This document shows positions 1,867 to 22,356 of a stretch of 24,703 nucleotides of DNA, one piece after another; within the stretch, counting starts at the first letter, position 1; each line of letters starts with the position of its first letter. This DNA comes from a virus. Under the pieces are notes generated by a model that searched no databases, was not told the origin of the DNA, and saw only the letters and a program-made list of their open reading frames with translations. Made by a program: the position numbers and the translations under genes. The stretch is from UHGV virus genome UHGV-0099692, one strand, 5' to 3'.

Positions 1867-2949
1867 TTAGAACTGGTAAACCATACCTACAGCAACGATA
1901 TCATCGGTAGCAACGCCAGATGCTTTCGTGAAATCGCTCTTATCAATCAGGTTGATTTTGTAATCAACAAAAGTGGACATATTTTTGTTGAAGTAATAGG
2001 TTGCACCTACATCAATATATTCAACCAGGTCCTGATCACCCCACGCACCCAAGTCTTTTCCTTTAGATTGCAGGTAAGCAACGGACGGACGCAGACCGAA
2101 GTCGAACTGATATTGTGCAACTACTTCGAAGTTTTGTGCTTTGTTGGCAATATGGTTATTACCAAAAACAGTCATGTTCTGGGTTTCAGAATAGGTGGTA
2201 GCCAGATAGATGTTGTTCGCATCATATTTCAGACCAGCTGCCCATACTTCAGCATTTTGACCAGATGCATTCAGGCTGTTGTTACCGTAGATAACCTGAT
2301 TATTAGTGCGGTCAGATTTAGCATAGGTTGCACCTACACCGAATCCTTCATACTCATAAGTAGTGGAGAAACCGAAACCATCACCATTAGCTTCAGTTAC
2401 GTCAGTGCGGTCATTTTTACCCTGATACTGAGCAGCAAAGTTCAGACCATCAACCAGACCAAAGAAGTCATTGTTACGATAAGTTGCAACACCTGTGGTG
2501 CGACCAGTCATGAATACATCTGTTTGGGTCCAGGTATCGCCACCGAATTCTGGCAGAACGTCGGTCCATGCACCAATATCGTATGCTACACCGTAGTTAC
2601 GGCCATAATCGATGGAGCCGTAGTCACCGAATTTCAGGCCAGCGAAGGCAAGACGGGTTTTATCTTTGGAGGAACCTTGAGATTCAGCGCGGTTGCCTTT
2701 GAATTCATATTCCCACTGACCGAAACCAGTCAGTTGATCGTTGATTTGGGTTTCACCTTTGAAGCCAAGACGGGCATAAGTAGTATCACCATCATCTGCA
2801 TCATTAGAGGAGAAGTAGTGCTTAGCATTAACTTTCCCGTACAGATCCAGCTTGTTACTGTCTTTATTATAAATTTCAGCTGCCTGAGCAGACATCGCCA
2901 TCAGTACTGATGCAGCTACAGCAGAAATTGCCACTGTTAATTTTTTCAT
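1867..2949 (-). CDS. nmpC: Outer-membrane general porin, NmpC/OmpD/OmpC family (360 aa), apparently intact
   Basis: Minus-strand ORF; start taken at [30 protein letters not shown] (Sec signal peptide, ATG complement at 2947-2949); porin motifs ([28 protein letters not shown]) and C-terminal ...VGMVYQF ending in Phe. The ORF-track start at 3009 adds 20 unsupported residues. Confidence 0.93.
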
Positions 2950-3375
2950 CGTGAGCCCTTTTTTTGAACTATTATTAAAAAATGATGTCACTGCGCGATA
3001 AATATTCATCTAATCAATGTGATTATTTCAAGATGTAAGTTTTGGTTTCTCATTTGATTTGTGAAGTAGATCTCTATTTTTATCTGAACTTTTTCTATCG
3101 AATCCTATTCATGGCTCTTGGCTGAATAAAAATAAATCTATTAGCCAATTTATATTAATGGCTGTTATTTATAAGTGCTCTATAATTTGAAGGTTCAATT
3201 TAAACCAGCTAAAAATAACGCTGGAAATTATTTGTTGGTTATTTGTTGAGATTTGCTTATGTATTTGTAGTGGTGTTTTCAATACTCGGTAGCATTCTCG
3301 CAAATATCATTTAGTGGTTTACGTACGTAAAAAATTGGTTATGCTGTTAAGAGTGGTTACTTCGTCACACAGCTT

Positions 3376-4713: not shown

Positions 4714-4931
4714 TAGCGATAATTTTACTCATCATCCTTCACATCTGGCTCTGTAGACAGGGTGGTGATCACTTCTGGAGTGAATCCAGATTTAACATCT
4801 CATTGCTGATGCTTGATATTGAGCATCTTGCGCGCGGTAAGGGGCTGCGTTGAGATAAGAGCCAGTCATCACAAACACCAGGATTTAGCCTCGCATTCGC
4901 GGGGCTTTTTATTGCAACAAAGGTAAAGACG

Positions 4932-5219
4932 ATGGATGAAGAATATCGTAAAGACCTGCAATTGTGGTTTGGCCTGACGCATGCGTCGTTCTGCGTGATG
5001 CCGAGAGTATTCATGGAGGCTATGCCGCAAGAATGGCAAGAGAAGATGGCGCAGTTGCTTTTTGAGTATGGCGACACGATCAAAACGGATGTCTGCGGAG
5101 TTCACTGCTGTTTCGTTACTGCCAAAGACGGCAACAACCGCTTTATGAGGATGCCAGAAGATATTCTGAACTATCGTCATCCCCGGCGTGAGTTCATCGA
5201 ATCATTTCTGAAGAAGTAG
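4932..5219 (+). CDS. Hypothetical protein (95 aa), function unknown
   Basis: Only substantial + strand ORF in this interval, co-directional with the late operon; four Cys (C21, C55, C59, C60). No family recognised from memory. Confidence 0.5.
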   Translation: MDEEYRKDLQLWFGLTHASFCVMPRVFMEAMPQEWQEKMAQLLFEYGDTIKTDVCGVHCCFVTAKDGNNRFMRMPEDILNYRHPRREFIESFLKK

Positions 5220-5312
5220 CCATTACAAAGTCTATCTGCGGGGGGCTTGATAAAGGTGCTTTCACCTCGCTTAGCATGGTATGTTCTGACTACCAACTTT
5301 TTGGGAGGACAC

Positions 5313-5537
5313 ATGGAACTGATAAATGGACGGCCAGGCAGAGATTTTATAGTGGGAACATATACCTACTCAGAAATTAAAGATCTTAACTTCATGGCTA
5401 AGGAAGAGAAAAGAGCTCGTGAAGAGCTAAAGCATCGGGGTTACGAATTGGCGTATATCAAGGCGGACTCTGAATGTAACGGGATGTTTGTCAGGGCGTA
5501 CCGGGTCTATACTGACAAAGCGCCATCTAATGTCTAA
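5313..5537 (+). CDS. Hypothetical small protein (74 aa), function unknown
   Basis: ATG at 5313 preceded by GGGAGGA (5303-5309); MELINGRPGRDFIVGTYTYSEIKDLNFMAKEEKRAREELKHRGYELAYIK...; the ORF-track start at 5247 lacks an RBS. Confidence 0.5.
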   Translation: MELINGRPGRDFIVGTYTYSEIKDLNFMAKEEKRAREELKHRGYELAYIKADSECNGMFVRAYRVYTDKAPSNV

Positions 5538-5672
5538 ATATACCTCGGGCGGTTTTTTACGTTCATTACCGTACGCAATTACAGCAGGCATTCATTGAGT
5601 GCCTGTGATAATGATTTATCAACGTGCTTGCAAACGGTATTCTAGACCTCCAATTATCCTAAGGAGGTTTTT

Positions 5673-6077
5673 GTGGTTAAAAATTTAGAATACATGAAGG
5701 GGATGCTTGAGGTATTTTTGAAAGCGAAAACTCCCTTTATATCTACAAAAGACTTAGCTAATGCGGGGTACGATATCTGCTCGAATGAAGGGATGTTTCA
5801 TTATCTACTTCTTATTGAGCAAGGTTATATCAGTAATAAAGATCTAATAACGGATGACATAACTAAACTGGGCTACATGCGCCATTGTGGCCATATGCTA
5901 GATATGGGTACCGACGTGCGACTATCTGCGCAGGGACAAGAATTCGCCCAGGCATTAAATGAACCTACGGTTTTTGAGAAATTAAAGTCAATGAGCGATG
6001 CCCCTTTGAGTACAATCAAAGATGTTGGGCTGGAGTTAACGAAGGCCTATTTAAAGAAGAAATTTGGCCTCGAGTAA
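5673..6077 (+). CDS. Hypothetical protein (134 aa) in an AT-rich segment, function unknown
   Basis: GTG start 7 nt after a canonical AAGGAGG (5660-5666); composition markedly more AT-rich than flanking phage genes; no TM segment or signal peptide; no recognised family. Confidence 0.55.
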   Translation: MVKNLEYMKGMLEVFLKAKTPFISTKDLANAGYDICSNEGMFHYLLLIEQGYISNKDLITDDITKLGYMRHCGHMLDMGTDVRLSAQGQEFAQALNEPTVFEKLKSMSDAPLSTIKDVGLELTKAYLKKKFGLE

Positions 6078-6137
6078 AATTTCTACCCTCACGAGTTAAG
6101 TTGTTTTGTGATGGTTATTCGCAATGAATATCTTTAG

Positions 6138-6164
6138 CCACTGGCATTTGCTGGTGGTTTTTTT
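6138..6164 (+). terminator. Possible intrinsic terminator after the AT-rich ORF
   Basis: CCACTGGCA-tt-TGCTGGTGG imperfect hairpin (G-U pairs needed) followed by a 7-T run (6158-6164). Confidence 0.35.
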
Positions 6165-6261
6165 ATGCGCATCCCTCGCGCACCACAAAGGGAGTCTTTC
6201 AGTAGTGATTCTGAATATCAGTGTGATAAACGTATTTGACAATCATTATCATTTTTGGTGG

Positions 6262-6301
6262 GTCCTTTCCGGCGATCCGACAGGTTACGGGGCGGCGACC
6301 T
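6262..6301. other. cos site: cosQ-like region plus cosN; 12-nt cohesive end GGGCGGCGACCT at 6290-6301
   Basis: GGTCCTTTCCGGCGATCCGACAGGTTACG|GGGCGGCGACCTCGCGG matches, from memory, the lambda right-end/left-end junction almost base for base; lies directly upstream of the Nu1 homologue as in lambda. Confidence 0.85.
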
Positions 6302-6336
6302 CGCGGTTTTTCACTATTTATGAAAATTTTTCAGGG

Positions 6337-6455
6337 AAAATCGTGTCGGTACTTCTCGAATATAACTTTTTGTTTTTTTTTAATATTGCATCCGTAAAGG
6401 TCCGACATGAAAGTGTCCGAAAATGCCTTTTTCTGGCGTTTTCATGTCGGGCCTT
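6337..6455. promoter_or_regulatory. cosB-like region with repeated GTCCGACATGAAA-type elements (candidate terminase small-subunit binding sites)
   Basis: Seen directly: GGTCCGACATGAAA (6399-6412) and its inverted partner TTTCATGTCGGGCC (6442-6455), one mismatch; related copies AAAATCGTGTCGGT (6337-6350) and GTGTCCGAAAATG (6413-6425). Located between cosN and Nu1. Confidence 0.4.
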
Positions 6456-6478
6456 GTATTTGATAATGGGTTGTTTTC

Positions 6479-7027
6479 ATGAAGGTTAATAAAAAGAGGC
6501 TTGCCGAAATTTTCAACGTGGACCCGCGGACGATTGAACGCTGGCAGTCTCAGGGACTCCCTTGCGCCTCCAAAGGTAGTAAGGGCATTGAATCTGTATT
6601 TGATACTGCCATGGTAATTCAGTGGTATGCGCAGAGGGAAACTGATATCGAAAACGAAAAGCTCCGCAAAGAACTGGACGATTTGCGTGCGGCAGCGGAG
6701 TCAGATTTACAACCCGGCACCATTGACTATGAACGCTACCGGCTCACAAAAGCGCAGGCAGATGCGCAGGAACTGAAAAATGCCCGTGAAGACGGAGTAG
6801 TGCTGGAAACTGAACTGTTTACCTTCATTCTGCAACGTGTGGCACAGGAGATTTCGGGGATACTTGTGCGTGTGCCGTTGACATTACAGCGTAAATATCC
6901 GGACATTTCACCATCACACCTTGATGTGGTGAAAACTGAAATCGCGAAAGCCTCCAATGTTTCAGCTAAGGCCGGTGAAAACGTGGGCGGGTGGATCGAT
7001 GATTTCAGACGCGCAGAAGGCAGCTAA
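6479..7027 (+). CDS. nu1: Terminase small subunit (lambda Nu1 homologue), 182 aa
   Basis: [28 protein letters not shown]... N-terminal winged-HTH; strong similarity to remembered lambda Nu1 (e.g. [28 protein letters not shown]); immediately downstream of cos. Confidence 0.93.
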
Positions 7028-8927
7028 TGCAGCCGGTGCGATAGCAACAGGGCTTTTATCTCTCATTATTCCTGTTCCACTGACGACAGTTCAGTGGGCC
7101 AATAAACATTATTACCTTCCTAAAGAGTCGTCTTATACCCCGGGGCGGTGGGAAACACTGCCGTTTCAGGTTGGCATCATGAACTGTATGGGCAACGATT
7201 TGATTCGCACTGTTAACCTGATTAAATCTGCCCGTGTTGGTTATACAAAGATGTTGCTGGGAGTGGAGGCTTATTTTATTGAGCATAAATCACGCAACAG
7301 CCTTCTTTTTCAGCCCACGGACTCAGCTGCTGAAGATTTTATGAAATCTCATGTTGAGCCAACGATAAGGGAGGTTCCTGCGTTGCTGGAGCTGGCTCCA
7401 TGGTTCGGAAGAAAACACCGCGATAATACGCTCACCCTGAAGCGTTTTTCCTCCGGTGTGGGTTTCTGGTGTCTGGGGGGAGCGGCAGCAAAAAACTACC
7501 GTGAAAAATCCGTGGATGTGGTCTGTTATGACGAGCTTTCCTCGTTCGAACCGGATGTTGAAAAAGAGGGTTCGCCAACCCTGCTGGGGGATAAACGTAT
7601 TGAGGGCTCTGTATGGCCCAAATCCATTCGCGGCTCGACGCCTAAAATCAAAGGCTCCTGCCAGATCGAAAAAGCCGCTAACGAGTCGGCACACTTCATG
7701 CGTTTTTATGTGCCCTGTCCGCACTGTGGGGAGGAGCAGTATCTGAAATTTGGCGATGAGTCCACGCCTTTTGGGCTTAAATGGGAGAAGGACAGCCCCG
7801 AAAGCGTTTTCTACCTCTGTGAGCATCATGGCTGCGTGATCCATCAGTCTGAACTGGACCAGAGTAACGGGCGGTGGATCTGTGAAAACACGGGCATGTG
7901 GACCCGTGACGGTCTGACGTTTTTCAGCGCTGCGGGTAATGAAATTCCGCCGCCGCGCTCCATCACTTTCCATATCTGGACGGCGTACAGTCCGTTCACC
8001 ACCTGGGTACAGATTGTCTATGACTGGCTGGATGCACTGAAAGATCCCAACGGCCTGAAAACCTTTGTGAACACCACGCTGGGCGAGACCTGGGAAGAGG
8101 CCGTGGGCGAAAAACTCGATCACCAGGTGCTGATGGATAAGGTTGTGCGTTACACGGCTGCGGTGCCTTCCCGGGTGGTTTATCTGACGGCGGGCATTGA
8201 CTCGCAGCGAAACCGTTTTGAGATGTATGTCTGGGGATGGGCTCCGGGAGAGGAAGCCTTTCTGGTGGATAAAATCATCATTATGGGGCGTCCCGATGAG
8301 GAAGAGACGCTGTTACGTGTGGATGCGGCGATCAACAAAAAATACCGCCATGCAGACGGAACCGAAATGACTATTTCCCGTGTCTGCTGGGACATCGGGG
8401 GGATCGATGGCGAAATTGTCTATCAGAGGTCAAAAAAACACGGTGTTTTCCGGGTGCTGCCGGTAAAAGGCGCATCTGTCTATGGCAAGCCGGTGATCAC
8501 CATGCCAAAAACCCGCAATCAGCGGGGCGTGTATCTGTGTGAAGTGGGGACGGACACCGCAAAAGAAATTCTCTATGCCCGTATGAAAGCCGATCCCACG
8601 CCTGCGGATGAAGCCACGTCGTATGCCATCCGTTTTCCTGATGATCCGGAGATTTTTTCGCAGACAGAGGCGCAGCAACTGGTCGCGGAAGAGCTTGTGG
8701 AGAAGTGGGAAAAAGGAAAGATGCGTCTGCTGTGGGATAACAAAAAGCGGCGTAACGAAGCGCTGGACTGCCTGGTGTATGCCTACGCGGCATTACGTGT
8801 GTCCGTGCAACGCTGGCAGCTTGATCTGGCTGTACTGGCAAAATCCCGGGAAGAAGAGACGACCCGGCCAACCCTTAAAGAACTGGCAGCGAAGCTGTCC
8901 GGAGGAGTGAATGGTTACAGTCGCTGA
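6999..8927 (+). CDS. A: Terminase large subunit (lambda gpA homologue)
   Basis: Start chosen at MISDAQ (ATG 6999) inside the 3' end of Nu1, as in lambda; long colinear similarity to remembered lambda gpA ([59 protein letters not shown]). The ORF-track start at 6957 is probably an extension. Confidence 0.93.
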
Positions 8928-21945: not shown

Positions 21946-22017
21946 TATTATTTACTCATGTTCTAACTGATTTAATATTTATATCGAACACTGATAATTA
22001 TTCTATTGGTTAGCTAT

Positions 22018-22356
22018 ATGAACAAAACGATTTTATTCTGCACGATTATTGCCTTAACAGGATGTAAATCTTTGGATTACGTAAAATCCGGAAAACCTGT
22101 AATGGAAGGTAATTCATTAAAAAATATTGATGAATTGTCAGGCTGCATATCCAGACAATGGGCTGGTAATGGAACACCTATAACATCCCTTCCTATTGAG
22201 AATGGGGTAAGCCTTTTAGTTCCACAGGCTATGGGGGGATATGATGTTGTGCTTGATATCAAAAAAGCAGGAAATGGCAGTAGTTTTACTCTTTATGAAC
22301 GTGTACCAGCATTAACGCCAAAAATTTTTGCTGATAGTGTTAATGCATGTAAATAA
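22018..22356 (+). CDS. Lipoprotein of unknown function (112 aa) inserted between I and J; candidate lysogenic-conversion or superinfection-exclusion factor
   Basis: ATG at 22018; MNKTILFCTIIALTGC = signal peptide with lipobox LTGC, Lys at +2 after the lipid-modified Cys (not an inner-membrane retention signal); AT-rich in a GC-rich tail operon; followed by its own terminator. The ORF-track start (TTG 22006) is less likely. Confidence 0.7.
   Translation: MNKTILFCTIIALTGCKSLDYVKSGKPVMEGNSLKNIDELSGCISRQWAGNGTPITSLPIENGVSLLVPQAMGGYDVVLDIKKAGNGSSFTLYERVPALTPKIFADSVNACK

Follow-up and report, generated by a model that had tools for sequence, protein, structure and literature searches.

The locus examined here lies in a 24,703-nucleotide stretch of a virus genome (UHGV-0099692; the whole of this stretch is referred to as the window), and raises the question of which packaging specificity is present where a cohesive-end cutting site like that of phage lambda is followed by a sequence that departs from lambda's. 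A sequence-only reading, made without database searches, had proposed that the cutting site is of lambda type and that it is paired with a packaging specificity distinct from lambda, as in the known lambda versus phage 21 difference. That difference, which concerns cosB and TerS on a common cosQ and cosN, has for decades served as a standard genetic system. Judged by its sequence, the region 6260-6476 is almost certainly a lambda-family cohesive-end site, complete with cosQ, cosN and cosB, whose packaging specificity is of the phage 21 class. The surrounding genome is that of a lambda-like, phage 21-like prophage or phage, and the cognate terminase genes follow directly 3′ of the site. The site is already known, being the phage 21 cos, a textbook element, and no new packaging specificity is involved.

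A sensitive BLAST search of GenBank phage records using 6200-6500 as the query returned three independent phage 21 entries (M81255, X02501 and OL657228), in which bases 1-210 of phage 21 correspond to window positions 6290-6500 with 99.5% identity over 211 bp (E = 4e-101), a match that is beyond chance. The window was also aligned with the joined ends of phage 21 and of lambda. Rightward of the nick and through the whole of cos, the sole difference from phage 21 in this alignment was the addition of a single T to a homopolymer run; the cosB that had been described as divergent is that of phage 21 but for this one base. Phage 21 (genome announcement, PMC9119081) has its cos together with the gene 1 and gene 2 terminase (OL657228, X02501 and M81255), and the subsites follow in the same order, in the same orientation and at the same distance to the TerS start codon as they do in the window.

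The packaging-termination subsite cosQ (GGGTCCT) is located at 6260-6266 on the plus strand, identical in sequence to the cosQ annotated at 42902-42908 of OL657228 and to 48473-48479 of lambda, and is separated from the nick by 23 bp, the distance found in both lambda and phage 21. The cosN cohesive end GGGCGGCGACCT at 6290-6301 (plus strand) has a single exact match in the 24.7-kb window, and in the alignments base 1 of the virion records of both phage 21 and lambda falls on position 6290. The junction reads ...GGGTCCTTTCCGGCGATCCGACAGGTTACG/GGGCGGCGACCT/CGCGG..., and the bases flanking cosN (..GGTTACG/GGGCGGCGACCT/CGCGG..) are as in lambda and phage 21. Due to the identity of this sequence with OL657228, in which the cohesive end is annotated at bases 1-12, cleavage to 12-nt cohesive ends is predicted, with nicks at 6289/6290 on the top strand and 6301/6302 on the bottom strand that would leave 12-nt 5′ overhangs.

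Comparison with lambda bore out the lambda type of the cutting site: identity is 7/7 in cosQ, 29/30 from -30 to -1, 12/12 in cosN and 29/33 from +13 to +45. Phage 21 itself carries the cosQ and cosN of lambda (PMC4669245), and the combination of a lambda-type nick with a 21-type cosB is therefore not a hybrid. Left of the nick, phage 21 has T at -18 and A at -11, whereas the window has G at both positions, in each case the base found in lambda. A lambda/21 recombinant cos was considered on account of these two bases and rejected in favour of ordinary polymorphism, since in those 21-type loci whose left flank was long enough the cosQ-to-nick stretch had the version seen in the window, GGGTCCTTTCCGGCGATCCGACAGGTTAC, in 10/37 and the phage 21 version in 15/37. 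The interval between cosQ and the nick is treated in published work as not specificity-determining. Further left, beyond cosQ, the window and phage 21 have unrelated sequences, indicating a different accessory-gene region before cos.

Each of the phage 21 subsites I2, R3, I1, R2, R1 and I0 is present as an exact string. The IHF-site-like I2 at 6319-6333 (plus strand), between cosN and R3, matches the I2 feature of M81255, and R3 (AATCGTGTCGGTACTT; 6339-6354, plus strand), the predicted critical TerS binding site, is identical to R3 of OL657228 (50-65) and of M81255. The IHF site I1 at 6361-6375 (plus strand) matches the I1 feature of both M81255 and OL657228. R2 is inverted relative to R3 and R1, occupying 6397-6412 on the minus strand (minus-strand reading TTTCATGTCGGACCTT), and is an exact match to OL657228 (107-122) and M81255. 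R1 (TTTCATGTCGGGCCTTG; 6440-6456, plus strand) is an exact match to R1 of OL657228 (150-166), and the IHF-like I0 (6462-6476, plus strand), which overlaps the ribosome-binding region of gene 1, is an exact match to I0 of M81255. The order R3-I1-R2 (inverted)-R1, found here between cosN and the TerS gene, is the architecture described for a complex cosB (PMC9026076).

The inverted repeat pair that had been noticed from the letters alone was recovered, with GGTCCGACATGAAA at 6399-6412 and TTTCATGTCGGGCC at 6440-6453 being reverse complements but for one base. At its full length the pair consists of TTTCATGTCGGACCTT (6397-6412, minus strand) and TTTCATGTCGGGCCTT (6440-6455, plus strand); the 16-mer TTTCATGTCGGNCCTT has two exact copies in the 24.7 kb, in opposite orientation and 43 bp apart, and no further copy was present in the window with up to three mismatches allowed. 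Two weaker copies had also been proposed, one of which is R3 at 6339-6354, while a search for a second copy that matches any annotated site found none. Two candidates for this second copy were rejected: GTGTCCG at 6414-6420, which lies within the palindrome formed by R2 and R1 and matches no annotated site, and CCGACAGG at 6277-6284, the only other core match with one mismatch, which is also found in lambda and thus is not 21-specific.

Although cosQ and cosN are common to lambda and 21, each phage prefers its own DNA in packaging by a factor of more than 1000, which has been attributed to the recognition helix of TerS and to the R sites of cosB, with the key contacts and clashes at R3 bp 56 and 59 and at TerS residues 20 and 24 (PMC4669245). 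Identity between the window and lambda does fall about 45 bp right of the nick, as had been proposed, to 63% from +46 to the TerS start codon (phage 21 versus lambda is likewise 63%) and to 17/30 in the R3 region (bases 46-75). This departure marks the known boundary between the common cosQ-cosN-I2 block and the specificity-determining cosB. Lambda (NC_001416) has homologous terminases, the same R3-I1-R2 (inverted)-R1 architecture and a long palindrome from R2 to R1, but its R-box core is CGTTTCC, versus C-A/G-TGTCGG in the window, and its R3 has T:A at bp 56, where the window has G:C (6345). G:C at this position is the phage 21-specific state (PMC4669245); bp 59 of R3 in the window is G (6348).

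The TerS gene (6479-7027, plus strand; ATG start codon at 6479) encodes a 182-aa homologue of Nu1 that matches Pfam Phage_Nu1 (E = 2.4e-81) and is identical to phage 21 gp1 at 180/182 residues and 53% identical to lambda Nu1. The two differences from gp1 are A46V and A162S, and residues 1-45, including the entire helix-turn-helix (HTH), are identical to gp1. The N-terminal winged HTH has E20 and S24, whereas lambda has Q20 and E24; the HTH strings that the sequence-only reading gave for the two proteins, that of the window and lambda Nu1, were both correct. Over the first 54 residues the protein is identical to PDB 7LWR_A at 53/54 positions, A46V being the exception. The TerL gene (6999-8927, plus strand), which like its phage 21 counterpart begins within the 3′ end of the TerS gene, encodes a 642-aa homologue of phage 21 gp2 and lambda gpA, identical to gp2 at 631/642 residues and 67% identical to gpA. 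TerL matches Pfam GpA_ATPase and GpA_nuclease, and is predicted to carry the cosN-nicking endonuclease and the packaging ATPase. The C-terminus of TerS binds TerL in a phage-specific way.

Against lambda alone, the low identity of cosB and an HTH that differs at many positions could be taken for a cosB/TerS pair that belongs to neither lambda nor phage 21 and is joined to a lambda cutting site. However, R3, R2 and R1 are exact copies of the phage 21 boxes, the HTH is that of gp1, the sole TerS differences lie outside the recognition helix, and the 54-residue DNA-binding domain in 7LWR differs only by A46V. Because the boxes and the recognition helix are exactly those of phage 21, a new specificity is effectively excluded. 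What stands of the earlier proposal is that the specificity is not that of lambda, from which both cosB and the TerS helix differ; its extension beyond the known cases does not stand, as the repeats are unchanged from phage 21 and the locus falls on the phage 21 side of the known difference. The window has neither the R boxes of lambda nor the Nu1 helix with Q20/E24, which together define lambda packaging specificity, and it does have the R boxes with G:C at bp 56, the gp1 recognition helix and an adjoining 21-type TerL, which define that of phage 21. With specificity residing in the R-box sequence and TerS residues 20 and 24, lambda terminase should not initiate packaging at this site, and phage 21 terminase should.

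A similar junction is known from phage-inducible chromosomal islands (PICIs), which carry lambda-like cosQ and cosN and redirect the TerS of a helper phage via the Rpp protein, so that there too a near-lambda cosQ/cosN is joined to a non-lambda right side (PMC9026076). The cos of a PICI is without repeated R sequences and is followed by the rpp gene (PMC9026076), whereas the window has three R boxes followed by full-length TerS, TerL and a complete head-tail module. The presence of R boxes and full terminase genes leaves a PICI origin of the site with virtually no probability.

Upstream of the phage 21-type cos are a DUF1364 (ybcO-type) gene, rusA, a Q-type antiterminator, a porin on the opposite strand, holin, lysozyme and Rz, and downstream are W, portal, S49 protease, decoration protein, major capsid protein and the tail genes as far as J, all of these downstream ORFs being open. 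The predicted virion ends fall inside the window, and the prophage order of lysis genes, cos, terminase, head and tail is permuted relative to the virion, in agreement with what had been proposed from the sequence. Such a permuted map is common to every lambda-like prophage.

Several features of the flanking regions were observed in addition. The porin gene (1867-3009, minus strand) encodes a 380-aa OmpC/NmpC-like protein and lies between the Q-type antiterminator and holin genes; the genes follow one another likewise, as quuD, ompC and essD, in a related prophage of E. coli BH100N. The interval from Rz to cos (4869-6100) contains three small ORFs, at 4932-5216, 5247-5534 and 5673-6074, in the position where phage 21 and many of its relatives have bor/iss and a TonB-like gene. 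No Pfam match was found for any of the three, which matched only PHROG families 3527, 6100 and 585, of unknown function. The match of ORF 4932-5216 is confined to positions 139-230 of the 233-position phrog_3527 profile (the C-terminal 40%), and this ORF therefore looks 5′-truncated. A terminator-like hairpin is found at 6136-6159, just before cos. At the other end of the window, tail gene I and the tail-tip gene J are separated by an inserted small ORF (22006-22356) that has a lipoprotein-type signal (MNKTILFCTIIALTGC...); J restarts at about 22417 and runs off the window end.

Many lambda-like prophages of E. coli are defective, and the site could be a relic, a 21-type cos out of use in a prophage unable to excise, replicate or assemble. 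The window does not contain integrase, immunity or replication genes, and the partial ORF at 4932-5216 points to a past rearrangement near the interval between the lysis genes and cos. Every cos subsite is intact, however, the TerS, TerL, portal, protease, capsid and tail ORFs are full length, and the lysis genes and the Q-type antiterminator are present upstream; moreover, the cos of even a defective prophage can be used by a 21-specific helper phage. A relic is considered rather unlikely.

The distribution of the site was examined using the 126-bp cosB (6335-6460), which was found in 583 of 5,426 complete E. coli genomes, or about one in nine, when carriers were counted at a coverage of at least 80% of the 126-bp length; identity was at least 99% in 315 records among the complete E. 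coli genomes. The carriers include CFT073 and O104:H4 outbreak strains, and the TerS of the CFT073 prophage is named TerS-21 in the literature (PMC9026076). The cosB sequences of the prophages of CFT073 and O104:H4 2011C-3493, and of phages PhiR57_1, PhiR63_2, 4A7, 1W, 3W and ev017, are 99-100% identical to that of the window, and the O104:H4 prophage also has the left flank of the window from about 6100 in common (99.8% over 461 bp). The whole 24.7-kb window had no match among the complete E. coli genomes, the best reaching 87% coverage at approximately 92% identity. The closest matches of the window are E. coli prophages, and the element is another mosaic with a standard cos module. A pattern scan for the R3 to R2 stretch with a variable T-run returned nothing among species-representative genomes, and the same pattern was found at 40 loci in IMG/VR.

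The cosB sequences of 148 cos sites sharing GGTTACGGGGCGGCGACCTCGCGG formed nine clusters at 85% identity, of which the lambda type was the largest (77 sites) and the 21 type, to which the window belongs, the second-largest (41 sites). The occurrence of nine cosB clusters on a common cosN core indicates a modular organisation, in which a conserved cosN is combined with exchangeable cosB types. The N15/Monarch-type and other cosB classes have the same cosN core and flanks but different R boxes (e.g. GGTTGTTGTT-type), some of them with a different architecture. In the IdasGreatGrand type, the most diverged 21-like relative examined, the R boxes are identical at 45/48 positions versus approximately 82% for cosB overall, which fits selection on the boxes.

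Further variation was seen among the IMG/VR loci. Loci L155, L151, L140, L072 and L086 have differing cosB sequences at bases 46-190 right of cosN and an identical cosN core, and at least nine cosB classes are attached to this core. In the class of L155 (n = 16), the two distal repeats AACCGGACATGA are direct, not inverted, to each other. In locus L146, the TerS gene starts approximately 80 bp after cosN and there is a single R-like box.

The one base that distinguishes the window from phage 21 rightward of the nick lies in the T-run after I1 (6373-6381, plus strand), which is T9 in the window versus T8 in phage 21 and increases the I1-to-R2 spacing by 1 bp. T9 is also present in E. coli BH100N, and T8 in CFT073 and O104:H4 as well as in phage 21. 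Among the 40 IMG/VR loci with a 21-type cosB, the run was T8 in 29, T9 in 4, T5CT3 in 4, T7 in 2 and T10 in 1, and the extra T is a naturally recurring variant. Given the range of T7 to T10, the distance from R3 to R2 can differ by as much as 3 bp between loci, provided that none of these runs reflects a homopolymer sequencing error. As a lesser possibility, the length of the T-run over this range could tune IHF dependence or packaging efficiency.

The sequence from 6397 to 6455 is one continuous palindrome of which R2 and R1 are the outer arms, and when folded as RNA it has a free energy of -35.5 kcal/mol (z = -9.3). The 16-bp R boxes do not include the inner stem, GTGTCCGAAAA..TTTTCTGGCGT, and an inner stem of differing sequence is kept in lambda, in the IdasGreatGrand type, in IMG/VR class L151 and in the PhiR5_1-like L086. 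When the spacer only was shuffled, 2-14% of the shuffles folded equally well per type, a result that is borderline in each of the five cosB types, which are non-independent; the excess of the inner stem over chance is suggestive but not established. No RNA family was detected anywhere in the window using Rfam at gathering thresholds. The R2-R1 interval might be more than a spacer, acting as a late-mRNA hairpin 5′ of the TerS ribosome-binding site or as a DNA cruciform and contributing independently to terminase expression or initiation-complex assembly, but this is considered very unlikely.

A packaging cycle for the phage 21-type cos can be proposed step by step from the lambda and 21 literature. 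TerS dimers would bind R3 and R2 through their winged HTH, with R1 as a third site, and an IHF bend at I1 would bring R3 and R2 face to face; in the standard model, IHF bends the DNA so that both R3 and R2 are turned towards a TerS dimer (PMC9026076). The complex of TerS and IHF assembled on 6339-6456 would then anchor TerL, which would nick cosN at the two predicted positions 12 bp apart (6289/6290 on the top and 6301/6302 on the bottom strand). Terminase would remain on the end bearing cosB and dock on the portal, and the DNA would be pumped rightward, with the terminase, head and tail genes entering first, until the following cos of the concatemer is reached, where cosQ, cosN and I2 would direct the terminating cut.

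For the biology of packaging in the lambda family, the site adds nothing new. Its value is for annotation, in that the cos marks the predicted ends of the virion genome of this element and assigns the element to the phage 21 packaging class. This assignment in turn predicts which helper phages, hybrids or PICIs would be able to mobilise the element or interfere with it.
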